DNA of 64,000 nt from Elusimicrobiota bacterium (lineage in GTDB: Bacteria > Elusimicrobiota > Elusimicrobia > UBA1565 > UBA9628), in assembly GCA_027406905.1 (NCBI GenBank), contig DAHZHT010000005.1, positions 50,080 through 114,079 on the forward strand. The letters run 5' to 3'. The position numbers were made by a program, and so were the translations under genes. Within the stretch, counting starts at the first letter, position 1. Each line of letters starts with the position of its first letter. Shown in pieces: positions 2,630-44,840 of the stretch. The notes beneath the pieces were generated by a model that searched no databases, was not told the DNA's origin, and worked only from the letters and a program-made list of their open reading frames with translations.

Positions 2630-2711
2630 GCGCGGGTGGCGGAACTGGCAGACGCGTACGTTTGAGGGGCGTATGCCGCAAGGCGTGAGGGTTCGAGTCC
2701 CTCCCCGCGCA
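2630..2711 (+). tRNA. tRNA-Leu, anticodon GAG, long variable arm, no encoded CCA
   Basis: Hand-folded: acceptor GCGCGGG/CCCGCGC; D-arm GGCGGAACTGGCAGACGCG typical of tRNA-Leu; anticodon stem TACGT/GCGTA with loop TTGAGGG; extra arm TGCCGCAAGGCGTGA; T-arm GAGGGTTCGAGTCCCTC. Sits directly after secG, as the leuU-type gene does in other bacteria. Confidence 0.85.
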
Positions 2712-32222: not shown

Positions 32223-33725
32223 TTAGGACGCTTCCAAAATTTTTCTCTTGAGGATAACCCTCATTGATCTTCTGGTTTCATCAACGGCGATCTGGCCAAA
32301 TTTTTGTTTAAGCATTTCTAAAAAACCCGGGTCAGAATGGTATTTCATCCAGGCATAATCGCGGAAAGATAAAACCTCTTTTGCGCTCAGATGTTTTGTC
32401 GGCAATGGAAGGGTGTGATACGAATGTTGGGAAAAACCAGAGTAGCTCTTCGGCAGTTCCCAACCCGCTTTTTTAGCCATTCCATGCAGAGGGCTTCCCG
32501 GATAGGCCATCGCGGAATAAAAATTGGCCTCCTCCGTTCTCATTTCAAGCGCCAAATTCAACGTGGCTTGCATGCTTGACTGATCATCCTCCGGAAGGCC
32601 GAAAATATAGTTGGCGATGACGTTAATTCCGTGTTCTCTTATTTTTCTAACAACAGAGCGAATGTCAACGTCCTCAAATCGACCCTTGGTCACATCTTTG
32701 CGCACAAGAGAATTTGCGCTTTCAATTCCCAAGGCCAGCCAGTTGATTCCGGCCTTTTTCATCGTCTCAAGATAGCGATCCTTGACCGTATCCACTCTGG
32801 AATAACACCAAATATTAAAATTGTATCCTCGCTCAATAATAAGCTGGCACAGTTCTAAAAAATGATTCGGATTAAGAACAAAAAGCTCATCGGCAATTTT
32901 GATGTTCTTAATTCCTTGAGAGGCGAAATAATCGAAATCTCTGATAATATGTTTGGGATCCCAATAACGAAAAATAGCGCTCCCATCAGAAAATTCATTT
33001 TTTTGCCGATTGATGATATTGATCATGCAGAAAGAGCATTTCATTGGGCAGCCGAGACTTGTGTAAAGGGCCGCAAAAGGCTGCCTTTGAGATTGATTCG
33101 GATAAGAATGCCAGAGCGAAGTCCTATAATTTTTCATGGGAAGCAAATCCCAGGCGACTCCAGGCAAATCTTTTGGTAAATCTTCCTTGGCCACGATCGG
33201 AGAGGGAGAATTGAAAATGACTTTTCCGTTCTCTCTGTAACCGAGCCCAAGCACTTTGTCCAATCGATCGGAAAGATTTCCAGCTAAAAGGTTAGACAGG
33301 GTGTAAACTCCTTCGTTTTGACAAACAAAGTCTATGCTGGGATGCTTCCCCATCACTTCTTGAGGCAAGGCCGCGACATGTCCACCCACAAAAATAATTT
33401 TAATTTCCGGGAAATTCTTCTTAAGATGATCCGCCAGAGCCGTGGCTCCCTCCATATTCTGAGAACTCGCGGAAGGTTGCTGTCCATAAACCACGAAACA
33501 GGCAAGGCGGGGATTCAGATTTATAGTATGGGAAACGGCTTCATCATCCGTTAAGCGCAATGCTTCACAATCCAAGAGGTCAACGCGGTATCCTTTCATG
33601 CGACAGTGAGAGGCAAGCATTCCGGCCCAGATGGGCGGTTCAATCGCGGAGAAATCCTCGCTTAAATCCTGATAAACGCGATGTCCCGAATTGGAATGAA
33701 TAAAAAGAACATCAAGTTGATTCAT
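32223..33725 (-). CDS. cobalamin (B12)-binding radical SAM enzyme (class-B-like)
   Basis: N-terminal B12-binding Rossmann-like region. CxxxCxxC as CPMKCSFC. 500 aa. Confidence 0.75.
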   Translation of the reverse strand: MNQLDVLFIHSNSGHRVYQDLSEDFSAIEPPIWAGMLASHCRMKGYRVDLLDCEALRLTDDEAVSHTINLNPRLACFVVYGQQPSASSQNMEGATALADHLKKNFPEIKIIFVGGHVAALPQEVMGKHPSIDFVCQNEGVYTLSNLLAGNLSDRLDKVLGLGYRENGKVIFNSPSPIVAKEDLPKDLPGVAWDLLPMKNYRTSLWHSYPNQSQRQPFAALYTSLGCPMKCSFCMINIINRQKNEFSDGSAIFRYWDPKHIIRDFDYFASQGIKNIKIADELFVLNPNHFLELCQLIIERGYNFNIWCYSRVDTVKDRYLETMKKAGINWLALGIESANSLVRKDVTKGRFEDVDIRSVVRKIREHGINVIANYIFGLPEDDQSSMQATLNLALEMRTEEANFYSAMAYPGSPLHGMAKKAGWELPKSYSGFSQHSYHTLPLPTKHLSAKEVLSFRDYAWMKYHSDPGFLEMLKQKFGQIAVDETRRSMRVILKRKILEAS

Positions 33726-33830
33726 GAGCTTTCTGATTTTAGCATACCCTGAAGCCTGAAAATTGTGTTTATCCTTTAATGATATAATAGACTCTATGAA
33801 AGAAATATTTTCCTATCCGGCCTTGCCCTG

Positions 33831-34826
33831 ATGAAGGCTCCTTTTTATTCCTCTCTCTCTAGCGGCATGAGAGATTGGAAGCTCTACCGACTCATGCTTA
33901 AAATCAGGATGTCGGAGCAGAAAATTATTGATATTTATCCGAGCGATAAAATACAGAGCCCCATTCATCTTTCGATAGGACAAGAAGCCGTGGCTGCCGG
34001 TGTTTGTCTCGCCCTTAAATCCAGCGATCGAATTTATGGCACATACCGGGGACATGGAATTTACATTGCAAAGGGGGGAGATCTTGGGAAGATGTTCTCC
34101 GAGCTCTACGGAAAAGAAACCGGCTGTTCCAGAGGAAAAGGGGGATCCATGCATCTCTCCGCTCCGGAAGTCGGATTAGTCGGATGTTCAGCGATTGTTG
34201 GCAGTTTTATTCCCGTAGCCACGGGAGACGCTTTGGCCGCTCAAATGCGAAAAGATTCTCGCGTGGTCTGTTCGTTTTTTGGAGATGGAGCCGTTGATGA
34301 GGGCGTTTTTTTTGAAAGCGTTAATTTCGCCATTCTTAAAAATCTTCCCATTGTTTATGTTTGCGAGAACAATGGCTATGCGATCCACTCAAAAGTTTTG
34401 GATCGCCACAAACAGCCTTCCCTCGCCCGTCTCGTCTCTGGTCTCGGCTTGATTGGAAAACGCCATGATGGGAATGACGCTCCTGTCGTTTTTAAAACAA
34501 TGAGCCAAGCCATCACTCAAGCGCGTAAAGGCAAAGGCCCCGTTTTCCTGGAATATATGACCAATCGATGGCATGAACATGTCGGCCCCGGAACAGATTA
34601 TCAGGAGTCTTATCACTCCCCCAAAGACAAAGAAAATAATTCGCGCAATGACCCCATCAAAAAAATGGAAAAAATTTTGAAAAAACGGAAGGGATTTTCA
34701 CTCAGGGCGGATATTCTCAAGAAAGAAATTCAAAATGAGATAGACCAGGCCGTCAATTTCGCGGAGAAAAGCCCTTTCCCGTCCCTTCAGTCGCTTTATC
34801 ATGATCTTTATGCGGAGTCTCGATGA
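33831..34826 (+). CDS. thiamine-diphosphate-dependent dehydrogenase E1 alpha-like subunit
   Basis: ThDP-binding motif GDGAVDEGVFFESVNFA...CENNGYAI. Similar to pyruvate/acetoin dehydrogenase E1 alpha. Confidence 0.8.
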   Translation: MKAPFYSSLSSGMRDWKLYRLMLKIRMSEQKIIDIYPSDKIQSPIHLSIGQEAVAAGVCLALKSSDRIYGTYRGHGIYIAKGGDLGKMFSELYGKETGCSRGKGGSMHLSAPEVGLVGCSAIVGSFIPVATGDALAAQMRKDSRVVCSFFGDGAVDEGVFFESVNFAILKNLPIVYVCENNGYAIHSKVLDRHKQPSLARLVSGLGLIGKRHDGNDAPVVFKTMSQAITQARKGKGPVFLEYMTNRWHEHVGPGTDYQESYHSPKDKENNSRNDPIKKMEKILKKRKGFSLRADILKKEIQNEIDQAVNFAEKSPFPSLQSLYHDLYAESR

Positions 34827-35854
34827 AAAGGATGAATTACGGCCAAGCTATTCGTTCGGCGCTTCTCCATTCCATGGAACAAGATTCCTCTATTTTTATC
34901 ATGGGAATTGGAGTTGACGATCACAAGGCTGTTTTTGGAACAACGGCTGGATTGGTTGGGCGTTTTGGGAGAAATCGCGTTTTTGACACCCCCATTTCAG
35001 AATCTGGAATGACGGGCATCGCCATAGGAGCGGCCTTGGCGGGCATGAAGCCAATCCATATTCATATTCGCTCCGATTTCCTTTATCTTGCCATGGATCA
35101 GATCGCCAACATCGCCGCCAAGTGGTCTTCCATGTTTGGAGGCAACGCTTCCGTCCCGTTAGTCATTCGCTCCATCGTTGGACGAAGTTGGGGGCAAGGG
35201 GCGCAGCATTCTCAAAGCTTGCAATCGCTCTTTATGCATATTCCAGGCCTTAAGGTTCTCATGCCGACAACACCTTCCGAGGCGCAAGGCCTTCTTATCG
35301 CGGCGATCCAAGATCCTAACCCCGTACTAATTTTTGAGCATCGGCTTCTCTATGATATTATCGGAGATGTTCCCGATACGCCGACTGCGTTGCCGCTTGG
35401 CCGCGCGATAATTCGCCGAAAAGGAAGCGATATGACTCTTGTCGCCGGATCATATATGGCGGTAGAAAGCTTAAAGGCCGCAGAGTTTCTGTCCAAACAT
35501 GGCGTGGAGGCGGAAATTGTAGATCCAGTGTCTCTTGTCCCCCTGGATGAAAATAGAATTTTAGCATCCGTCGCAAAAACGGGGAGGGTCATCGTTATTG
35601 ATTCCAGCTGGACCACTTGCGGAATGAGCGCCGAGATCGCCGCCCTTATCGTTGAAAAAGGATTTCATTTCCTCAAAGCTCCGATACGCCGTCTTGGAAT
35701 GCAGCCCGTTGTCTGCCCCGTGAGCAAACCCCTGGAAGCAGCTTTCTATCCTAACGCAAAACTGATTGCCGCAGAGGCATTAACAATGCTGGGACGGGAT
35801 TTCCCAAAAACTCCCGCGCCTGAATTGCTCAACACGTTCAAAGGACCTTTTTAA
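34823..35854 (+). CDS. E1 beta-like (transketolase-type pyrimidine-binding and C-terminal domains) subunit
   Basis: Similar to 2-oxoacid dehydrogenase E1 beta. 4-nt overlap with the E1 alpha gene. Confidence 0.8.
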   Translation: MKRMNYGQAIRSALLHSMEQDSSIFIMGIGVDDHKAVFGTTAGLVGRFGRNRVFDTPISESGMTGIAIGAALAGMKPIHIHIRSDFLYLAMDQIANIAAKWSSMFGGNASVPLVIRSIVGRSWGQGAQHSQSLQSLFMHIPGLKVLMPTTPSEAQGLLIAAIQDPNPVLIFEHRLLYDIIGDVPDTPTALPLGRAIIRRKGSDMTLVAGSYMAVESLKAAEFLSKHGVEAEIVDPVSLVPLDENRILASVAKTGRVIVIDSSWTTCGMSAEIAALIVEKGFHFLKAPIRRLGMQPVVCPVSKPLEAAFYPNAKLIAAEALTMLGRDFPKTPAPELLNTFKGPF

Positions 35855-35855
35855 C

Positions 35856-37028
35856 ATGTTGCGCTATTACCTTGCTGAAGATACTATTAACCATTCCGAT
35901 GTTGACCGGCTTATCTCTTGGCTTAAAACCTATCCGCGCCTGACCAAGGGAGAAGTGACCCTTGATTTTGAGAACAAATGGGGACAATGGCTCGGGCGCG
36001 AATATTCCATCTTTTGCAATTCCGGCTCTTCCGCCAATCTTCTTATGTTTTACGCCCTTCTTCTCTCAAAGCGTTTAAAAAATAAAAAAATTATCGTCCC
36101 AAGCGTTGGCTGGGTCACTTCAGTGGCGCCAGCCATTCAATTCGGTTTTGAGCCCATTATGTGTGAGGCCGATCCTGAAACATTTGGCCTTGATCTTTCT
36201 CACCTGGAAATCCTGCTCAAACGTCATCGCCCCGGGGCGGTCATGCTTGTTCAGGTCTTGGGCGTTCCCCACAAAATGGACGAAATATTGAAACTTAAAA
36301 AGCGCTATGGGTTTCTTCTGCTTGAAGATGCCTGCGCCGCCGTTGGCGCTGAGTATCATGGAAACAAAGTGGGAACATTCGGAGATATGGCCAGTTTTTC
36401 CTACTATTTTGGGCACCAATTTTCCACGATTGAAGGGGGAATGGTTTCAACGAACGATAAGCACCTGGCAGACCTTTTGTTGATGTTGCGCAGTCACGGC
36501 TGGAGCAAGGATTTAGATGCGACAACTCATAAAAAATTAATTCGACAATATCGTGTTGATGATTTCCACAGTCCGTTTGTATTTTATGAGCCGGGGTTTA
36601 ATCTCCGATCAACCGATCTTAACGCCTATATTGGATTAGGCCAGATAGAAAAACTGTCCATGATCATAAAGGCTCGCCAAAAAAATCACTCTCAATATTT
36701 AAATCGCCTCGGTGATTATTTTTACACGCAAAAATGGGACAAAGAATCTCGCGTTTGCAGCATTTCATTTGGTCTTCTCGCAAAAAACAGAAGTGAGCGC
36801 GCGGCGGTTGTCTCGGCCCTTAACTCCCATGGAATTGAAACTAGAATTTTCTCCGCTGGAAACTTGGGCCTTCACCCTTTTTGGGTCAAGCGATACGGCA
36901 AGGCAAGTTTTCCTTTCGCCGATCGAATTCACCACACGGGATTTTTCCTTCCCAACAACCCCTCGCTTTCAGCCAAAAACATTGATTTTATATCGGATGT
37001 CGTTCTTGCCGCCGCTTTAAGAACATGA
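35856..37028 (+). CDS. DegT/ColD-family PLP enzyme, predicted nucleotide-sugar 3-dehydratase (catalytic Lys position replaced by His)
   Basis: Segment VGTFGDMASFSYYFGHQFSTIEGGMV...LRSHGWSKDLD resembles the ColD/E1 dehydratase subgroup of DegT proteins, where His replaces the Schiff-base Lys. Confidence 0.65.
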   Translation: MLRYYLAEDTINHSDVDRLISWLKTYPRLTKGEVTLDFENKWGQWLGREYSIFCNSGSSANLLMFYALLLSKRLKNKKIIVPSVGWVTSVAPAIQFGFEPIMCEADPETFGLDLSHLEILLKRHRPGAVMLVQVLGVPHKMDEILKLKKRYGFLLLEDACAAVGAEYHGNKVGTFGDMASFSYYFGHQFSTIEGGMVSTNDKHLADLLLMLRSHGWSKDLDATTHKKLIRQYRVDDFHSPFVFYEPGFNLRSTDLNAYIGLGQIEKLSMIIKARQKNHSQYLNRLGDYFYTQKWDKESRVCSISFGLLAKNRSERAAVVSALNSHGIETRIFSAGNLGLHPFWVKRYGKASFPFADRIHHTGFFLPNNPSLSAKNIDFISDVVLAAALRT

Positions 37029-37111
37029 AGAAAATTGCCCGCAAAACAAATCGCGTTCTCATTACTGGAATTGGGGACGGAATGACCAAGATGAGACGAA
37101 GGAAATCATAG
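37025..37111 (+). pseudogene. 28-codon stub of a Rossmann-fold (NAD(P)-binding) gene truncated by the IS remnant
   Basis: MKKIARKTNRVLITGIGDGMTKMRRRKS*. The ATG overlaps the stop of the ColD-like gene (ATGA). GxGxxG-like ITGIGDG is followed by immediate divergence and a stop. Confidence 0.5.
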
Positions 37112-37950
37112 GGCGAGTTCCGTTATGCCGATTTCAATCGTGAATCCGCTCAATTGGGGTTTTTTCACCGGGAAATAATTAGTTGTTGAGGGGCACTGGT
37201 GTCCGGGGAAAATCAGAACTCGAAGCATAGTTGAGGTTCCGTATTCCGCAACATGGATAATTTTCTCTCCGGTAGCCGCAGCAAATCGATCAGGCTGAGG
37301 CGATCCAAAAGGGTATTCTGAACGAGCTGTTGGAGCGGACAAGCGAGCGATGAAAGCGACATTGAAACTTGATGTAGGCCAGGAGCAAAAAGTACGTCAT
37401 GGACGCCCAAACCTGCGTGAGCACGGCGTTCTTGGAGGTGCCGAGGAACGTCTTTATCCGAAGGTGCGGCGTGATCCACTTGAAGAAAAGCTCCAGACAG
37501 AGGTCGATAGTGCCGGAATCGAAAGCGCACACGGGGTTTTTGAAGCGAAATTGATGATTGGGGGCGATGGCCTGGCAGCGCTCCAGAAGCTGGTAGAAGA
37601 GTTTCTCCATGATGCGGGAATCGCGTTTGGCGTTGGCGTCGGCCAAGGTCGATCGCTTCACGGCGGGCAATCCCCAGGTGGTAGAGCTTGGGCTCCTGGG
37701 TCTCCAGGGCGGTCTGGATGTCGCACAGGCTATTCTTGTTGGCGGCTTGAGCATACAGCAGCACCGTCAGTTGGTTCCAGGTCGAGAACTTTTTGACGTA
37801 ATGGTCTCCGCCGAAGTCGGAAACGGCTTGGTCGAACTGATGTCGGGGCAAAAGCGTCAACAACTGGTTCATGATTGTGTTAGAATACATTTGAAGAGTC
37901 CTCCGTCGGTATATTTAGCTTGCTCAGCACAAGTATTCTGCCAATGATGG
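37112..37950 (-). mobile_element. IS4-family insertion sequence remnant (3'-truncated)
   Basis: Two consecutive minus-strand reading frames give an IS4-family transposase N-terminal half (LLPRHQFDQAVSDFGGDHYVKKFSTWNQLTVLLYAQAANKNSLCDIQT; RSTLADANAKRDSRIMEKLFYQLLERC). No catalytic DDE C-terminal half. No inverted repeats identified. Confidence 0.65.
37213..37890 (-). pseudogene. frameshifted, truncated IS4-family transposase
   Basis: Covers ORFs 37213..37890 and 37290..37754, which are in different frames. Together they span about 250 aa, where a full-length transposase is more than 400 aa. Confidence 0.65.
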
Positions 37951-37998
37951 AGGATTCTTCGCTTTTAACCGGACACGAGTGATTGAGGGGCCAAATTT

Positions 37999-38937
37999 AT
38001 GAGAATGCGTATTTTTTTGACTGGCGGTAGCGGAATGGTTGGCAGAAATTTTCTTGAACATTCTGCCATAAGCGGATTCGATGTACTCGCCCCACACAGG
38101 AATGAGCTTAACTTGTTGGATTTTCAGGCAGTGACGGCATACGTTCGCGCACATAACCCTGATATTGTCATTCATGCCGCCGGTCGAGTGGGCGGTATTG
38201 AGGCCAATATGCGGGAGCCTGTTCGCTTTCTGATGGAAAACATGGATATGGGGCGCAATGTTGTTTTGGCGGCGCGTTCCATCGGAGTAAAGAAATTGTT
38301 GAATCTGGGGAGTTCTTGCATGTATCCTAGGAATGCCCCTAATCCACTGCATGAAGACATGGTGCTGAGCGGCGAACTAGAGCCAACCAATGAAGGATAT
38401 GCGCTTGCCAAGGTTGTTGTCGCGCGTCTATGTGAATATATTTCTCGCGAGAATCCGGAATATAAATACAAGACATTAATCCCGTGCAATCTCTATGGCC
38501 GCTATGACAACTTCGAACCATCGCGATCGCATTTGATGCCGGCAATTATTCATAAAATCCAAGAGGCTAAGTCCTCTGGATCAAGTGAAGTCACAATATG
38601 GGGTAATGGTATCGCGCGGCGAGAATTTATGTACGCTGGCGATTTGGCGGATTGCTTGATTGAGTCCGTTCGTCGTTTTGATAGTCTTCCCAATGTTATG
38701 AATGTGGGCGTTGGAGAAGATGCCAGCGTTGATGATTACTACAAAACCACTGCTGAAGTTATCGGTTATGGAGGCAAATTCACGCATGACTTAACCAAAC
38801 CGGTTGGAATGATGCGTAAGTTAGTATCGACGCAGAGGGCACAAGAGTGGGGATGGCGCGCTACAACTTCTTTGCGCGAAGGAATCAGGAAAGCATATGA
38901 CTTTTATGTGCAAGCATCAAAATTGAGAGTGGTATAA
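37999..38937 (+). CDS. fcl: GDP-L-fucose synthase family 3,5-epimerase/4-reductase (Fcl/ColC-like)
   Basis: Colinear with Fcl: MRIFLTGGSGMVGRN, LGSSCMYP, LEPTNEGYALAK, NLYGRYDNFEPSRSHLMPA, TIWGNGIARREF. Confidence 0.85.
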   Translation: MRMRIFLTGGSGMVGRNFLEHSAISGFDVLAPHRNELNLLDFQAVTAYVRAHNPDIVIHAAGRVGGIEANMREPVRFLMENMDMGRNVVLAARSIGVKKLLNLGSSCMYPRNAPNPLHEDMVLSGELEPTNEGYALAKVVVARLCEYISRENPEYKYKTLIPCNLYGRYDNFEPSRSHLMPAIIHKIQEAKSSGSSEVTIWGNGIARREFMYAGDLADCLIESVRRFDSLPNVMNVGVGEDASVDDYYKTTAEVIGYGGKFTHDLTKPVGMMRKLVSTQRAQEWGWRATTSLREGIRKAYDFYVQASKLRVV

Positions 38938-39046
38938 ATGGAAAACTATTACACTCTAGCCAGCACGACATGGAATGAGTCGGAACACTGGCGTATTCGA
39001 GTGGAAAAAAGATGGAAAGAGGCTTAGGGTTCTGCGGTAGAATAAA

Positions 39047-39991
39047 ATGAAAAAAGAAAAAATACTCATAACGGGGGGAGCGGGATACCTTGGATCGGTG
39101 ATGACTCGCCTTTTCCTTGAAACAGGCTATCACGTGCTTGTTCTGGATAATTTTATGTATGGACAATCCAGCCTTCTGGATTTTTGTGTTTTTGATTCTT
39201 TTGAAGTTGTGCGTGGAGACTGCCGCGATGAAGCTCTTATGAAAGGCCTCATCAAGGACGTGGATGCGGTCATTCCCTTGGCCGCATTGGTTGGCGCCCC
39301 TATCTGCAACCGCGATAAAATCGCCGCTGCGACCACCAATAGAGACGCGATCCAAATGCTCTGCCGCATAGCCGCCCCATCTCAAAAAATTCTTTTCCCC
39401 GTCACAAACAGCGGATATGGAATAGGAGAGAAAGGGAAATTTTGCACCGAGGAGAGTCCGCTGCGGCCAATTTCTTTTTACGGCCAAACAAAGGTTGAAG
39501 CGGAAAAAGCCATCTTGGATCGAGGCAATGGAATAACTTTTAGATTAGCGACAGCCTTTGGCGCTTCCCCCCGGATGCGAATGGATCTCCTGGTCAACGA
39601 TTTTGTCTACCGCGCGCTGGTGGACCGAGCTCTCATAGTGTTTGAGGGACACTTTAAGCGTAATTATATCCATGTCAGGGATATCGCGCGAGTTTTTCTT
39701 CATGGATTAAATAATTTCGAGACGATGAAAAATCAAACCTACAACGTGGGTCTTGAAGATGCCAACCTTTCAAAAATTGAGCTCTGCGCTCTTATTCAAA
39801 AAACTCTTCCGCAATTTGTCTATCACCAAGCGGAGATAGGAGAAGATCCCGATAAGCGCGATTACATCGTTTCTAACGCAAAAATACTCGCCACGGGATT
39901 TAAGCCCCAATGGAGCATCGAACGCGGAATCAAGGAACTCATTAAATGTTACACCGCTCTTGGAAAGGTCAATCTCTATGGAAATATTTAG
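39047..39991 (+). CDS. NAD-dependent epimerase/dehydratase (extended SDR)
   Basis: ILITGGAGYLGS Rossmann motif and YGQTKVEAEK (YxxxK). Lacks the T(D/E)xVYG motif of 4,6-dehydratases. Confidence 0.7.
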   Translation: MKKEKILITGGAGYLGSVMTRLFLETGYHVLVLDNFMYGQSSLLDFCVFDSFEVVRGDCRDEALMKGLIKDVDAVIPLAALVGAPICNRDKIAAATTNRDAIQMLCRIAAPSQKILFPVTNSGYGIGEKGKFCTEESPLRPISFYGQTKVEAEKAILDRGNGITFRLATAFGASPRMRMDLLVNDFVYRALVDRALIVFEGHFKRNYIHVRDIARVFLHGLNNFETMKNQTYNVGLEDANLSKIELCALIQKTLPQFVYHQAEIGEDPDKRDYIVSNAKILATGFKPQWSIERGIKELIKCYTALGKVNLYGNI

Positions 39992-39997
39992 AACCCG

Positions 39998-40993
39998 ATG
40001 ATCATCACTCGAACTCCCTTTCGCATGTCTTTTTTTGGCGGCGGAACGGATTATCCCGATTGGTATCGTGAGCATGGCGGAGCGGTTGTCGCCGCGACTA
40101 TCGACAAATATTGTTACATCACCTGCCGCTATTTGCCACCGTTTTTTAATTACAAGAGCCGCATTCTCTATTCAAAGATAGAATTAGTCGAAAATAATTC
40201 AAAAATTGAACATCCCGCCGTCCGCGCCGTTTTATCCGAATTGGGCATCGATTCAGGATTAGAAATTCATCATGATGGAGATCTTCCCGCCCGCACGGGT
40301 CTTGGTTCAAGTTCGGCTTTTCTTGTAGGCCTTCTCCATGCTATTTCCGCTTTAAAAAATCGAATGTCAACAAAAATGGAACTGGCAAAGACGGCGATAC
40401 ACGTTGAACAAACCGTGCTGAAAGAGAATGTCGGCTGCCAAGATCAGGTCATTACCGCCTTTGGCGGATTACAACGCATCGATTTTCAAAAAAGGGGCGA
40501 TATTCATATCAACCCCATTGTTATCAGCGAAGAGCGGCTGAAATTCCTGGAAAGTTCGGTCCTTCTCTATTTTACCGGCTTTTCCCGTATTGCCTCGGAA
40601 ATTGTTAAAGAGCAACTACAAAACATTCCTCAAAAAGCCCACGAGCTTTTACGCATTCGCGAGATGGTCGATGAATCAATTGAAATCCTCTCTGGAAATG
40701 GCGATTTAAACGAGTTTGGCAAACTCCTGGATGAAAGCTGGGAGCTTAAAAGAAGGCTCAGCTCCAAGGTTTCCTCCCCTGCTATTGATGAAATCTATAA
40801 AGCCGCGAAATCAGCCGGGGCTTTGGGCGGAAAAATCATGGGCGCCGGCGGCGGGGGATTTATGATGTTGTTTGCCCCCCCCGAAGCTCATCCGCGCATT
40901 CATGAAAAGCTAAAACATCTTTTAAGAATCCCCTTTCATTTTGAAAACGAGGGCAGTCACATTATTTACTATCACCCCAATGGAGGTCGCTAA
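39998..40993 (+). CDS. GHMP-family sugar kinase (heptose-7-phosphate kinase HddA / fucokinase-like)
   Basis: N-terminal TPFRMSFFGGGTDYPDWY and GHMP motif PARTGLGSSSAFLVGLL. Confidence 0.7.
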   Translation: MIITRTPFRMSFFGGGTDYPDWYREHGGAVVAATIDKYCYITCRYLPPFFNYKSRILYSKIELVENNSKIEHPAVRAVLSELGIDSGLEIHHDGDLPARTGLGSSSAFLVGLLHAISALKNRMSTKMELAKTAIHVEQTVLKENVGCQDQVITAFGGLQRIDFQKRGDIHINPIVISEERLKFLESSVLLYFTGFSRIASEIVKEQLQNIPQKAHELLRIREMVDESIEILSGNGDLNEFGKLLDESWELKRRLSSKVSSPAIDEIYKAAKSAGALGGKIMGAGGGGFMMLFAPPEAHPRIHEKLKHLLRIPFHFENEGSHIIYYHPNGGR

Positions 40994-41693
40994 CGCCATC
41001 GAAGTAGATGCCATAATTCTTTGCGGAGGGCAAGGCCGCCGCCTCGTGAAAGTTCTCCCTGACTTGCCTAAAGCTCTTGCCCCTATTGGAAACAAATCTT
41101 TCCTCGATATTCTACTCGACTACGCTGTCCAAGAAGGACTGCGGCGTTTTATTTTTTGCCTTGGACACCGCGCAAGCGCCATAGAAGAGAGATTAAGCGC
41201 GCGGCAGGATTGCGATATCGTTTTTTCAAAAGAGACCGTTCCGCTTGGGACCGCTGGCGCTCTCAAATTATGCGAACCATTGAGAAGAAGTCGAACATCC
41301 CTAGTGATGAATGGCGACTCTCTATGCAATTTCAACATCAAGGAGTTTCTTAAAGCCCATGTAGAAAATAACGCTTCGGCAAGCGTCGCGGCGGTCATGG
41401 CGCCCGATAGAGATGACGGCGGATTTATCGAGTTCGCAAAGGATTATCAGATCACGCGATTTAATGAAAAATATGGAAGCGCGAAATATATTAACGCTGG
41501 AGTTTACGCGCTCAACTCCGAGCTTTGGGGGAAAATTCCCCCAGAGCGACCCTGTTCCATCGAGAAAGACGTCTTCCCGCAACTCGTGGGACACGGCCTT
41601 TTCGCCTGGCCCACTCACGCGCCACTTTTTGACATTGGAACTCCGGAACGCCTTGAGGCTTTTCGGCTCTTATATGCTAGTAGAGATCCTTGA
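40980..41693 (+). CDS. sugar-1-phosphate nucleotidyltransferase (HddC / GDP-sugar pyrophosphorylase-like)
   Basis: AIILCGGQGRRL...LPKALAPIGNKSFLD. About 238 aa. Overlaps the kinase gene end. Confidence 0.7.
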   Translation: MEVANAIEVDAIILCGGQGRRLVKVLPDLPKALAPIGNKSFLDILLDYAVQEGLRRFIFCLGHRASAIEERLSARQDCDIVFSKETVPLGTAGALKLCEPLRRSRTSLVMNGDSLCNFNIKEFLKAHVENNASASVAAVMAPDRDDGGFIEFAKDYQITRFNEKYGSAKYINAGVYALNSELWGKIPPERPCSIEKDVFPQLVGHGLFAWPTHAPLFDIGTPERLEAFRLLYASRDP

Positions 41694-42876
41694 TTTTATC
41701 GCAGACATGCTCCGCGAATGGAATCGCACAGGTAAATCCGGGCGAAACGGCGTTGAGCACGTGCAGGGAGCGATTGTCTCCTTCGACGACAAAATCCATC
41801 TCGAGCTTCATTGTCTCGATATTCAACAGCTGGGCGCGCATGCCTGGCAGCCCCCATTTCCTGAAATTTTCAGGCCGCACTCCTTTCAATAAACGCCCCG
41901 CCAAAGCGGCCATTCTCTGCGCGGAATACTTTTGGAATTCCTCCAGGGCCAACCTCTTAAAATCAAAATCTGAATAAAAGAGAAGTCCTATATTTCTTGC
42001 CGTGATTTCAAGCATTTCTTTAAGAGAAAAGCCCTCCAGGCCCGCGTACTGCTCTCTCCAAAACGCCGGGATGGCCGTTGGACCAATATGGACGTTTCCA
42101 TTCGCCGCGAGGGTAAAGTGAACTCCGAGAAAGGGATTGCGGATATCGGGCACGGGATAGACATTCGTCCGAACGGAACCGACAGGCTCTGTCGAATTAA
42201 GATAAAGCCCTTTAAAAGGCACGATGCGGTGACGCTGTGAAAACCCAAAATCGCGAGCGATTTTATCAGCATAGAGGCCCGCCGCGTTGACCACATATCC
42301 CGCTTTGATAACTCCGGCGCTCGTGCGTACGCCATTAGGACCCACGGACAAATAGGCTTCATTTTCTCGAATATCGACCCCCTCGCTGATTGCGTCTTGG
42401 CGCAGAGATTCCATGACTTGAAACGGGTCGACCGTGGATGTCGTAGGGGAGAAAAGGGCTTTTTCATAAGTCAAGACTCGAGGTTCTATCTCTTGAGCTT
42501 CTTTCGAACTCAACATCCAAAGCGGAACCCCATTGGCTTTTCCTCGACGCATTAGTTCCTCAAGGGCCAGAATATCCTCGGGACCCTGGGCGACGACCAG
42601 TTTCCCGCAGCGGTTGAGTGGAATATTTTTATCCTCGCAATAACGAGTCAAGGCTTTGTTCCCCGATCTAGCCAATTGAGCTTTTAAGCTGTCGGGAAAA
42701 TAATAAAATCCGGCATGGATGACGCCGCTATTGCGCCCGCTGGCATGGAGGCCGCATCTCTTCTCTTTTTCCAGAACGGCGACGGAACAGTCCGGATGGA
42801 GAACTTTAAGTTCTCGGGATATTTGTATCCCGATGATTCCACCGCCGATAACGACAAAATCCCGCGATTCTATCAC
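41677..42876 (-). CDS. FAD-dependent oxidoreductase, L-2-hydroxyglutarate oxidase (LhgO)-like
   Basis: DFVVIGGGIIGIQISRELKVLHPDCSVAVLEKE...GLHASGRNSGVIHAGFYY, consistent with the LhgO/DAO family. Confidence 0.7.
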   Translation of the reverse strand: MIESRDFVVIGGGIIGIQISRELKVLHPDCSVAVLEKEKRCGLHASGRNSGVIHAGFYYFPDSLKAQLARSGNKALTRYCEDKNIPLNRCGKLVVAQGPEDILALEELMRRGKANGVPLWMLSSKEAQEIEPRVLTYEKALFSPTTSTVDPFQVMESLRQDAISEGVDIRENEAYLSVGPNGVRTSAGVIKAGYVVNAAGLYADKIARDFGFSQRHRIVPFKGLYLNSTEPVGSVRTNVYPVPDIRNPFLGVHFTLAANGNVHIGPTAIPAFWREQYAGLEGFSLKEMLEITARNIGLLFYSDFDFKRLALEEFQKYSAQRMAALAGRLLKGVRPENFRKWGLPGMRAQLLNIETMKLEMDFVVEGDNRSLHVLNAVSPGFTCAIPFAEHVCDKIKDLY

Positions 42877-42882
42877 GATCTC

Positions 42883-44127
42883 TCAGGAATTTTGCTGGAG
42901 TTCGGAAGATGGAAATATCCGCGAAAGAGCGGCTCCGGAGAAAATAATCAATAGGGCTAAGGCTGGAAGCTGGTAGCGATTGTCCCAATACCCGACGAAA
43001 ATGTGAAGACTGTAGTAGCAAAATCCCGCAAAGGCAAGAGTAGAAGCTATTGTCCAATTTGTACGCCGTAAATACATTTCCCAAAAGGCAAGAATCAAGG
43101 TCGCTAGTTCAAAAACCCAAAGGACAGCCCTAATCACAATGGGCCCCCAACGTCCTTCTTGGCGATAAACGGAAATGGGTTGATCAATCCCGAACATCGC
43201 CGAATGGCTGGTCAACCAAAAATGAATCAGGCGAGACGGGAGTTTAAAGATCAATCGCGGCCAATTGGCTTTATAATTATTCAAGGCCATCCGATAAAAT
43301 TCGGCATCCGTCTCGATCTCGCTTCTCCCCACGGCCACCTGTTTTTGGACTGCCCCAACGTCGAGAGGGCGGGAAAGCTGCGAACCGCACCAAAGCGCGG
43401 GCCCTCCCCCTGTCGCCACCGGAATCCAAACTCCCATGACCTGTTTGTTTCTCAAAGACCAAGGAAGAAGCGTTAAGTAGGCGCACAGGAGAACTCCCGC
43501 AAGATGCCGCAACAGGCGCGGTTTTTTATGATGGAAAAGAAGAATAAGGAATGCGGCTCCTGGAGGAAATAAAATAAGGCTGGGCCGACAGAGAATCGCC
43601 AGTCCAAGCACAAAGCCCGCGAAAGCAAACAACCACTCCAGATTTTTCTTTAAATTTGACTCAAAAGCGTAAAGTAAAAGACAAAGGGCGGACGACCATG
43701 TCATGATAAACAGAGTCTCCGTCATAATTTCCGCGGTATAAGCGATAAAAACAGGATGAAGAGCGTAAAAGGCCGCCCCAAAAATCGCTCCCCTGCGTTC
43801 ATTGAGAGCATAAAGACCAAAAAGATAGATAAGCCCGATCGTTATTGTGTCTAAGAATGCTTGCGCTGCGCGCGCGTAAAACCACGGCCTATTGGAAAGC
43901 ATGACAAAAATAGAAAGGAATGCCGGATATAAAGGAGGGCGTATCGCCGTAGGCTGATTTCTAATCATGGAAAATTCGCCATGGAGGGCTATATTTTGGG
44001 CAATGCCGGCATACTCTACGCTATCTCCCAACAAAGGCGCCGATCTTTTTACCACCACCATGCTGATTCGAAGGATAAATCCCATGACCAAAACAATAAA
44101 CAAAGGATTTCTTAAAAAATTTTTCAT
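42883..44127 (-). CDS. GT-C fold glycosyltransferase (family 39 ArnT/PMT-like), second copy
   Basis: Polytopic membrane protein. Start set at MKNFLRNPLFIVLVMGF, whose ATG overlaps the GT2 stop (ATGA). Confidence 0.6.
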   Translation of the reverse strand: MKNFLRNPLFIVLVMGFILRISMVVVKRSAPLLGDSVEYAGIAQNIALHGEFSMIRNQPTAIRPPLYPAFLSIFVMLSNRPWFYARAAQAFLDTITIGLIYLFGLYALNERRGAIFGAAFYALHPVFIAYTAEIMTETLFIMTWSSALCLLLYAFESNLKKNLEWLFAFAGFVLGLAILCRPSLILFPPGAAFLILLFHHKKPRLLRHLAGVLLCAYLTLLPWSLRNKQVMGVWIPVATGGGPALWCGSQLSRPLDVGAVQKQVAVGRSEIETDAEFYRMALNNYKANWPRLIFKLPSRLIHFWLTSHSAMFGIDQPISVYRQEGRWGPIVIRAVLWVFELATLILAFWEMYLRRTNWTIASTLAFAGFCYYSLHIFVGYWDNRYQLPALALLIIFSGAALSRIFPSSELQQNS

Positions 44128-44840
44128 TTCGATCCCTTCCGCCGCCAATAGAAAATTTCTCGAAGGATCTGTGCCATATAGGCTAAACCCCAACGCACAA
44201 TTTGGAGCTTCCGGTCTCCGCCTAGGCGCTTTGGCTCATCTCCAGGAATTTCCGTCACTCTCAGACGTGTTTTTGCGCAGCGGACGGAAAGGATAGGTTC
44301 CCAACTGATGCGTGTACAAAAAAATTTCTCCGGCGTGTAGGTCGAGTCCTTATCTAAATCAAGCAACCCAATAAGGTCTTTCTTATACGCGCGATACATG
44401 ACCATGGCGTCAGTGTATTGTCCGCCAAAAAGGAAGTTGATTGTATAGGTAAAAAGCCAATTGCCAAAAGCGGTCATGAAATCATCATCTTCGCTTTTGG
44501 CGCCGGCCAGGTAGCGAGACACAATCACCATGTCATAACCTTCTTTGATTTTCTCAATCAATGGGGGAATTAATTCTGGGAGAGAATTCCCATCAGGGCT
44601 GAAGGTGATAATGACATCACCTTTGATTAAGCTCATTGCTTCCAAATAGCCATGGCGCAACCCGCGCTCTTTCTGAACGATAACATCAAATCCCTGAGAA
44701 TGACAATACCCCACCGTGCCATCATTAGAGCCGCCATCAAGGACTAAAATTTGGTCAACCCAACGGCGATCAATAAGCGGCATAATTTGACGCATCCCAA
44801 TTTCTTCATTTAAGACTGGAACCAAAAGGGTGGTCTTCAT
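44124..44840 (-). CDS. GT2 polyprenyl-phosphate sugar synthase (ArnC/DPM1-like)
   Basis: VPVLNEE...ILVLDGGSNDGT...DxD-type motifs. 238 aa. Confidence 0.75.
   Translation of the reverse strand: MKTTLLVPVLNEEIGMRQIMPLIDRRWVDQILVLDGGSNDGTVGYCHSQGFDVIVQKERGLRHGYLEAMSLIKGDVIITFSPDGNSLPELIPPLIEKIKEGYDMVIVSRYLAGAKSEDDDFMTAFGNWLFTYTINFLFGGQYTDAMVMYRAYKKDLIGLLDLDKDSTYTPEKFFCTRISWEPILSVRCAKTRLRVTEIPGDEPKRLGGDRKLQIVRWGLAYMAQILREIFYWRRKGSK

Follow-up and report, generated by a model that had tools for sequence, protein, structure and literature searches.

Replacement of the gene coupled to a ColD-like gene in a glycan locus of an uncultured Elusimicrobiota bacterium

In the stretch of Elusimicrobiota DNA analyzed here (64 kb of contig DAHZHT010000005.1, called the window throughout), the gene of a ColD-like sugar dehydratase is followed by a 28-codon open reading frame (ORF), by a degraded insertion sequence (IS) of the IS4 family, and by a gene resembling fcl. 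The locus raises the question of which gene was lost at this position, what took its place, and whether the sugar pathway was inactivated or rewired. The original prediction held that the IS remnant, over positions 37025-37950, had taken the place of a gene coupled in translation to the ColD-like one, probably that of a 4,6-dehydratase. All coordinates are positions in the window unless a comparison locus is named; the contigs and loci fetched for comparison are numbered L001 to L023, and the features are collected in Table 1. As set out below, we consider it fairly probable that a tailoring-enzyme cassette was swapped in a variable slot of the cluster and was then spread by homologous recombination, with the pathway rewired and not inactivated.

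The intact allele and the replaced block

The product of the ColD-like gene matched Pfam DegT_DnrJ_EryC1 at 235 bits, and its best solved structure was ColD (2gms, 189 bits). It shows the ColD-type combination of a DegT fold with a histidine in place of the Schiff-base lysine; this histidine, in the stretch ...YYFGHQFST..., falls in the alignment on the ColD position at which the variant entry 3b8x departs, which we take to be the catalytic His188, mutated to H188N. A protein search with the ColD-like gene returned L001, a 4.6-kb ENA contig that encodes a 99% identical protein (P0001). The BLASTN comparison of L001 with the window resulted in two blocks, each at 99% identity, the first aligning L001 1-1493 with window 35580-37072 and the second aligning L001 2396-4634 with window 38982-41220. 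Between the blocks, L001 has 902 bp, whereas the window has 1909 bp (37073-38981). The 902 bp of L001 complete an intact gene (L001 1446-2441) for a 331-aa short-chain dehydrogenase/reductase (SDR) of the GMD/RMD clade, coupled by ATGA to the ColD-like gene. In the window allele, codons 17-316 of this SDR were exchanged for the 1909-bp fragment.

Both ends of the lost gene are still present in the window, in the correct order, orientation, and frame on either side of the insert, and the ATGA overlap between the stub and the ColD-like stop codon is still kept. The comparison with L001 identified the stub as the genuine head of a Rossmann-fold SDR. The original prediction was right about the 28-codon ORF and about the destruction of a coupled gene; the span it gave is superseded by that of the replaced block. 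The GxGxxG motif it read in the stub needs correction, as only codons 1-16 are native and the GDG of the apparent GIGDG comes from foreign DNA; the glycine motif of the intact SDR gene is ITGIFGSGGSYL. L001 and L002 share the gene order ColD-like, 331-aa GMD/RMD-clade SDR, 6vo6-like SDR, GHMP kinase, and nucleotidyltransferase, which by this comparison is the original order of the cluster.

Neither replacement joint (37072/37073 and 38981/38982) touches the IS, whose ends lie 121 bp and 1000 bp from them, and the sequence shared at the right joint is GGAA only. These joints also bear on a possible assembly artefact, in which the contig of a metagenome-assembled genome would be a chimera of strains or loci and the real genome would hold the intact SDR as L001 does. 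Such a chimera would fit the intact version on a 99% identical contig from another assembly, the restriction of the divergence from L001 to a ~2.3-kb tract around the block, as if the consensus had switched strain, and the occurrence of the fcl-like protein on a single contig in the protein collection. However, the insert has the head and the tail of one gene on its two sides, with order and frame preserved, which argues strongly against a random mis-join. Additionally, the IS shows a pair of matching inverted repeats as well as a target duplication, the piece with fcl and the head of colD ends at a 4-bp microhomology joint, and no repeat at either junction is long enough to mislead an assembler. 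We regard an artefact as very unlikely.

Over the aligned blocks, the window and L001 differ by 36 mismatches in total, and 32 of the 36 hug the junctions (binomial P = 3e-28). This clustering indicates that the rearranged and the intact alleles diverged far more than their genomic backgrounds did. The simplest reading would be that one allele moved into the background of the other by homologous recombination, the crossovers lying near 36800 and 39080, and we infer that the rearranged allele predates the divergence of the window from L001. The use of L002 as an outgroup to polarize the differences between the window and L001 was uninformative (4 vs 5 sites).

Table 1. Features of the replaced block and its surroundings, in window coordinates
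Feature	Position	Strand	Remarks
Sugar island	~32.2-44.8 kb (32223-44840)		Gene-content reading
ColD-like PLP/PMP-dependent (pyridoxal/pyridoxamine phosphate) sugar C3-dehydratase gene	35856-37028	+	390 aa, intact, DegT family
Stub ORF	37025-37111	+	28 codons, MKKIARKTNRVLITGIGDGMTKMRRRKS, then stop; 16 native codons and 12 from foreign DNA
Head of the destroyed SDR	37025-37072	+	First 16 codons, MKKIARKTNRVLITGI; aligns with L001 1446-1493
Left end of the fragment	37073-37185		113 bp without similarity
Target-site duplication, copy 1	37185-37193		GTTGAGGGG, abuts the IS end
Defective IS4-family element	37194-37981	-	788 bp; inverted repeats 37194-37212 and 37963-37981
Target-site duplication, copy 2	37982-37990		ATTGAGGGG, abuts the other IS end
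GDP-L-fucose-synthase-type (GFS/ColC-type) 3,5-epimerase/4-reductase gene (fcl-like)	37999-38937	+	312 aa, intact
Head of a colD orthologue	38938-38981	+	First 15 codons, the 44 bp after the fcl stop, MENYYTLASTTWNES; right end of the fragment
Chimeric ORF	38938-39027	+	29 codons, MENYYTLASTTWNESEHWRIRVEKRWKEA, then stop; in-frame fusion of colD head and SDR tail
Tail of the destroyed SDR	38982-39027	+	Last 14 codons and stop, EHWRIRVEKRWKEA, then stop; aligns with L001 2396-2441
6vo6-like SDR gene	39047-39991	+	314 aa, intact
GHMP sugar kinase gene (HddA-like)	39998-40993	+	Intact
Nucleotidyltransferase gene (HddC/ManC-like)	ends 41693	+	Intact
Tract of raised divergence from L001	36798-39079		Brackets the replacement
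Mismatches to L001	35580-36799		0
Mismatches to L001	36800-37047		13
Mismatches to L001	38988-39079		19
Mismatches to L001	39080-41220		4

The IS4-family relic and the fragment that carries it

The 1909-bp fragment comprises, from left to right, 113 bp, the IS, the intact fcl-like gene, and the first 15 codons of a colD gene. The longest transposase ORF of the IS (37213-37890) starts at 37890 and stops at 37213-37215 on the minus strand. Its N-terminal domain matched Pfam DUF4372 at 89 bits against a cut-off of 25, and the IS4 model of NCBIfam matched weakly (22.9 against a cut-off of 115), the low score being due to the deletion of the transposase core. The transposases of ISPosp4 and of a Rhodoferax IS4 element also matched the relic by tblastn. 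By scanning metagenome contigs with the right-end sequence of the IS, we found full-length copies in L018 and L020, which are 1273 bp long, 82-84% identical to the window IS, and equipped with an intact 386-aa transposase that is 42-43% identical to the annotated ISPosp4 transposase. The edges of homology are sharp in the window, L015, L018, and L020 (CACTGG... and ...GAGTG termini), and the terminal inverted repeats, 37194 CACTGGTGTCCGG... and ...CCGGACACGAGTG 37981, match at 16 of 19 positions (chance 1e-7). The two copies of the 9-bp target duplication, (G/A)TTGAGGGG, match at 8 of 9 positions (chance ~1e-4).

Compared with L020 (84% nucleotide identity), the window IS has an internal deletion of ~472 bp that removed residues 136-292, most of the catalytic region. 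The deletion junction lies near 37485-37496 and falls between two ELF-coding stretches, which are microhomologies, and two frameshifts (+1 near 37672 and -1 near 37342) separate the ORF from its intact relative. The relic thus has the homologous transposase, the inverted repeats, and the target duplication of an IS4-family element without an intact DDE core. It had been described as a 0.8-kb, frameshifted, 3'-truncated IS4 element on the opposite strand; the family, the strand, and the frameshifts were confirmed, whereas the truncation was not, since the transposase C-terminus and stop are present together with both inverted repeats and the element is instead internally deleted. By its sequence, the window IS is a defective, non-autonomous derivative, and this copy is probably immobile. 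No further copies were found within the window, and a search of the plasmid database with the IS returned distant IS4 relatives only (76-80% identity over ~80 bp).

Solo right-end fragments of the IS occur at L015 3002-3304, L019 12340-12642, and L017 3704-3762, with Elusimicrobia bacterium GWA2_66_18 among their sources, which are other genomes and metagenomes. Judging from its distribution, an initially active element appears to have decayed repeatedly in this group. A deletion breakpoint shared by the window IS with L015 and L019 was rejected, because the window lacks the deleted part and the alignments end there for that reason.

When the IS was excised in silico, the restored sequence ...TTAGTTGTTGAGGGGCCAAATTTATG gave fcl a normal Shine-Dalgarno sequence and start, and therefore the IS landed 8 nt upstream of fcl; the likely Shine-Dalgarno sequence itself, GAGGGG, lies within copy 2 of the target duplication, 8 nt upstream of the fcl-like ATG. 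Given the distance of the joints from its ends and its own target duplication, the IS looks like a simple insertion within the fragment. It was probably a bystander or passenger and not the agent of the replacement, and nothing in the sequence ties transposition to the replacement event itself. Of the IS-mediated rearrangement that had been proposed for this glycan locus, the rearrangement stands and the mediation by the IS is without support, the coupled gene having been replaced by the whole fragment, fcl included.

The fcl-like protein scored 309.9 bits against the NCBIfam model GDPFucSynFcl (NF047922), below the equivalog cut-off of 500; it is a member of the family that lies outside the curated equivalog of GDP-L-fucose synthase (GFS). 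Two solved GDP-fucose synthases of the PDB matched it at 262 and 223 bits. In E. coli numbering, GFS uses a Ser107/Tyr136/Lys140 triad and a Cys109/His179 epimerization dyad (PMC7949155), and both are present in the fcl-like protein, whose GSSCMYP, GYALAK, and SRSHLMP fall on the equivalent motifs in the solved GFS 7ll6. With an intact ORF, triad, and dyad, the enzyme looks functional. Its nearest homologues, its own copy excluded, are 77-78% identical, and the named ones belong to Hydrogenophilales and other Proteobacteria. On their contigs the gene sits between a 372-aa gmd and a DegT gene, that is, in gmd-fcl-colD loci, and the DegT gene of L010 matched the ColD structure 2gms at 550 bits. 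This context of its relatives suggests a ColC-type colitose synthase. BLASTN found no counterpart of the fcl-like gene in L001; by this comparison, the gene is an immigrant and not the native partner of the lost SDR.

The right end of the fragment leads to the same kind of locus. The colD head agrees with the N-terminal sequence MSNY(T/S)LASTTWDEAEY encoded by the gene after fcl in both L007 and L010, and the DNA alignment of the fragment to both loci extends to 38979, so that the part with fcl and the beginning of colD has, in sequence, the gene order of gmd-fcl(colC)-colD loci of the colitose/fucose type. Directly after the fcl stop codon, the chimeric 29-codon ORF begins, fused at the GGAA microhomology.

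The left end (37073-37185) matched nothing among the fetched loci, including L001, the gmd-fcl loci L007-L012, and the IS, whether by blastn-short, tblastx, or tblastn with gmd C-termini, and gave no match to Rfam. Presumably it lay upstream of fcl in the donor. A gmd C-terminus was considered for it and dropped as unconvincing, with a weak resemblance by eye only. One frame of these 113 bp closes an ORF (...NPLNWGFFTGK, then stop) 22 nt before the pre-insertion start of fcl. At 37857-37886 on the plus strand, the left end of the IS contains a sigma-70-like sequence with an extended -10 (TCAACA-18-TAGAAT) that faces fcl and could be an outward promoter. In a scan for promoters and terminators, such matches were no commoner than in shuffled sequence.

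The lost SDR, the related clusters, and the fate of the pathway

The top NCBIfam match of the 331-aa SDR of L001 was gmd (TIGR01472), with 133.9 bits against a cut-off of 415. The protein has the motifs STSEVYG and YxxxK (PYAVSK); since the reductase 2pk3 has a comparable SSE and a YxxxK as well, dehydratases and reductases cannot be told apart by them. Identity amounts to 38% with the reductase RMD (2pk3, 197 bits) and likewise to 38% with the GDP-heptose 4,6-dehydratase of C. jejuni (7us5, 178 bits). Its PRR motif favors a dehydratase, whereas the comparison of the slot among related clusters favors a reductase, and the automated names of its homologues (65-75% identical, many of them from Elusimicrobia) are split between gmd and rmd. 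By these matches, the lost SDR is a GMD-like extended SDR of the GMD/RMD clade. A second gmd or dmhA was not found by tblastn within the window.

Downstream of the block, the product of the 6vo6-like gene is identical in sequence to that encoded in L001 and is a close full-length homologue of a solved enzyme (PDB 6vo6/6vo8, 385 bits, 55% identity over 310 of 314 residues), which we take to be the Cj1427 C4-dehydrogenase of Huddleston et al. 2020. Cj1427 oxidizes GDP-heptose at C4 with alpha-ketoglutarate to the 4-keto sugar without a dehydratase, using alpha-ketoglutarate in a ping-pong manner with tightly bound NADH (PMC10680097), and its product is accepted in vitro by a ColD-type C3-dehydratase (PMC10680097; see also PMC10440746). 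The kinase and the nucleotidyltransferase scored under their equivalog cut-offs throughout and are assigned at the family level only. All other genes of the cluster are intact.

The slot that follows the ColD-like gene varies among related clusters. A GFS-family SDR overlaps the ColD-like stop in L021 and L022, both from Elusimicrobia, and in L023, from Nitrospira; this SDR matches the window Fcl-like protein with E values of 1e-32 to 1e-38, and shows no similarity to the lost SDR; a Cj1427-like gene (63-69% identity) comes after it. No GMD-like gene occurs within the 17 kb of L023 that were read, and this cluster looks complete. In L003-L006, the slot is empty, with a GFS-like gene elsewhere in the cluster and no SDR remnant in the slot. 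A 334-bp spacer lies there between the ColD-like and Cj1427-like genes (L003 11174-11506, the same spacer in L004-L006), with GC-rich palindromes (CCCTCTCCCGC...GCGGGAGAGGG) that resemble repetitive extragenic palindromic (REP) elements. The order now found in the window (ColD-like, GFS-type, Cj1427-like, kinase, nucleotidyltransferase) is therefore an architecture found intact in nature.

These results bear on the proposed loss of the 4,6-dehydratase step, which had been deduced from the rule that gmd precedes fcl. That argument does not apply, because fcl itself came with the fragment and is not native to the slot; the loss of the step is uncertain, given the equal identity of the lost SDR to RMD and to 7us5 and the presence of GFS-family enzymes in related slots. 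In its full form, the inactivation account states that an IS4 element interrupted or deleted the 4,6-dehydratase gene, that the committed dehydration was lost, that the glycan locus is decaying and non-functional, and that fcl contributes nothing. The destroyed gene is indeed GMD-like (STSEVYG, gmd as its top NCBIfam match, and PRR, RW, and HWR..KRG in common with 7us5), there is no other gmd-like gene in the window by tblastn, the coupling to the ColD-like gene is broken, and IS DNA parts the upstream from the downstream half of the operon. However, the junctions lie away from the ends of an IS that has its own target duplication, the replacing DNA brought in a complete GFS-type gene from another locus, the remaining genes of the cluster are all intact, and an L023-type cluster appears complete without a GMD-like gene in the 17 kb read. 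Moreover, the allele was apparently exchanged by recombination and is not a private lesion, and a Cj1427-like C4-dehydrogenase, if our identification holds, can supply the 4-keto intermediate (PMC10680097). Inactivation therefore appears rather unlikely, and of the two outcomes that had been left side by side, inactivated or rewired, we judge rewiring the more likely.

In the favored cassette swap with rewiring, the two replacement joints would have been made by illegitimate (microhomology) recombination. The IS inserted upstream of fcl by ordinary transposition, to which its 9-bp duplication attests, and later died through the ~472-bp deletion between the two ELF-coding microhomologies and the two frameshifts; with respect to the replacement, it looks like a passenger or a later insertion. 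One allele would have been carried into an otherwise identical background, with the crossovers named above. In the present pathway, the Cj1427-like enzyme would still supply the 4-keto sugar and the ColD-like enzyme would still remove the 3-OH, while the incoming GFS-type enzyme would fill the slot that a GFS-family SDR holds in the intact relatives L021-L023. The expected effect would be an altered stereochemistry or C6 status of the final sugar.

Several points weigh against this account. A contig consensus that switches strain could give the same clustering of mismatches, and the 113-bp left end matches nothing fetched. The fcl ORF stayed open while the adjacent IS gained three disabling lesions, but the significance of this contrast is weak (P ~0.11 in a crude neutral model). 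The gene is not translationally coupled, it lies behind 0.9 kb with the antisense IS, and its expression depends on read-through or on the one promoter-like match described above. Identity between the immigrant enzyme and the GFS-family proteins of L021-L023 is no more than 25-28%. The entry 6vo6, taken here as Cj1427, is labeled only as a putative sugar-nucleotide epimerase/dehydratase. Finally, the motifs of the lost SDR (STSE, PRRxDxF, the RW loop, and the C-terminal HWR..KRG) are nearer to 7us5 than to the two solved reductases, and by these motifs a real loss of C6-deoxygenation is possible.

Beyond the block, the plus strand of the sugar island also has genes resembling the alpha and beta subunits of pyruvate dehydrogenase E1, directly upstream of the ColD-like gene, and a divergent B12-radical-SAM gene lies upstream. 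An operon on the minus strand converges on the sugar operon and comprises GT2, PMT_2 (GT-C), and LhgO genes (44124-44840, 42883-44193, and 41677-42876). The last gene of this operon (41677-42876) encodes an L-2-hydroxyglutarate oxidase that exceeds the equivalog cut-off (307 vs 299 bits). The 6vo6-like enzyme, taken as a Cj1427-type enzyme, should yield L-2-hydroxyglutarate from alpha-ketoglutarate, for which the neighboring LhgO gene is suggestive context only, and LhgO may provide a built-in recycling of the co-substrate; the equivalent cluster of L021 includes a 2-Hacid_dh gene. From the gene content, the cluster probably makes a modified 3-deoxy-heptose for transfer via a polyprenyl carrier.

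A recurrent, uncharacterized cluster family in Elusimicrobia and Nitrospira is recognized among the window, L002, L003-L006, and L021-L023, with a ColD-like gene, a variable SDR slot, a Cj1427-like gene, a GHMP kinase, a nucleotidyltransferase, E1alpha/beta (or a split transketolase), and B12-radical-SAM. GT2 and PMT genes occur in L021 and the window. The gene set points to a C-branched or methylated 3-deoxy-heptose as the probable product of the family. Elsewhere in the window, at 18660-19259 on the plus strand, a gene for an HNH endonuclease precedes one for a metallophosphoesterase, and a single tRNA gene (2630-2711, plus strand) is the sole Rfam match.

A more specific proposal, which we advance tentatively, is that L001 shows the state before, and the window the state after, a non-orthologous displacement in situ, in which a slot of the GMD/RMD type became one of the GFS type and one natural architecture was thereby turned into the other, in a cluster that perhaps makes a new C-branched or methylated 3-deoxy-heptose with recycling of L-2-hydroxyglutarate by LhgO.

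Comparison with known systems and meaning of the event

Clusters for O-antigens and capsules evolve as mosaics by cassette replacement, often with IS remnants, as in the rfb loci of Salmonella and E. coli, the O-antigen loci of Yersinia, and the capsular polysaccharide (CPS) loci of Campylobacter. As in these loci, a tailoring gene of the window gave way to a non-orthologous gene of a different sugar pathway, the newcomer has a decayed IS next to it, and the flanks show the raised divergence that is typical of the import of alleles by homologous recombination. The window differs in that its host, which the named homologues place probably in Elusimicrobiota, is uncultured, that both remnants of the displaced gene, head and tail, can still be seen, and that the intact earlier allele exists on 99-100% identical flanks.

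The GDP-heptose pathways of C. jejuni comprise the Cj1427 C4-dehydrogenase, a PLP-dependent C3-dehydratase, GFS-like C4-reductases, and the 4,6-dehydratases DdahA/DmhA (PMC10680097, PMC10440746, PMC7949155). The window resembles this set in its HddA/HddC-like pair, its 6vo6 homologue (55% identity), its ColD-type C3-dehydratase, and an SDR slot for a GFS or GMD/RMD enzyme; it differs in adding the E1-like alpha/beta and B12-radical-SAM genes and in having a GT2 and GT-C (PMT_2) pair instead of capsule export. The colitose module, gmd-colC(fcl-like)-colD, shares with the fragment the order upstream gene, fcl-like, colD. In contrast to the full module, the import was confined to fcl and 15 codons of colD, and the 113 bp upstream of the IS have no similarity to gmd.

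Likewise, the window IS shares with the IS4 elements related to ISPosp4 (DUF4372 and DDE_Tnp_1) the DUF4372 domain, the ~19-bp inverted repeats, the 9-bp duplication, and the single transposase ORF, but it lacks transposase residues 136-292 and has two frameshifts when compared with the full-length 1273-bp relatives. In the Avi and Pau pathways, the E1alpha/E1beta-like pairs AviB1/AviB2 and Pau11/Pau12 were proposed to add a C-4 acetyl branch, followed by the ketoreductase Pau7 (PMC4753412). The window similarly has E1alpha/E1beta-like genes upstream of the C3-dehydratase and an SDR slot that might hold a ketoreductase, a likeness in gene content only; Avi and Pau are actinomycete antibiotic pathways that act on different sugar nucleotides.

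In an annotation of the locus, the stub, the relic of the IS, the chimeric ORF of 29 codons, and the gene labeled fcl are to be read as a scar and an immigrant tailoring gene and not as a colitose/fucose operon that lost its gmd. The event is a new instance of the well-known mosaic evolution of polysaccharide loci, and its anatomy is unusually clear; none of these findings overturns the current understanding. With both alleles on near-identical flanks, it provides a clean, datable case of glycan-locus diversification in uncultured bacteria. It also points to a conserved, uncharacterized pathway around the 6vo6-like enzyme, which we take to be of the Cj1427 type, where the occupant of the variable SDR slot could predict the stereochemistry of the product. 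If the window and L001 do hold the after and before alleles, the diversification of a surface glycan would have been caught at nucleotide resolution in an uncultured lineage.

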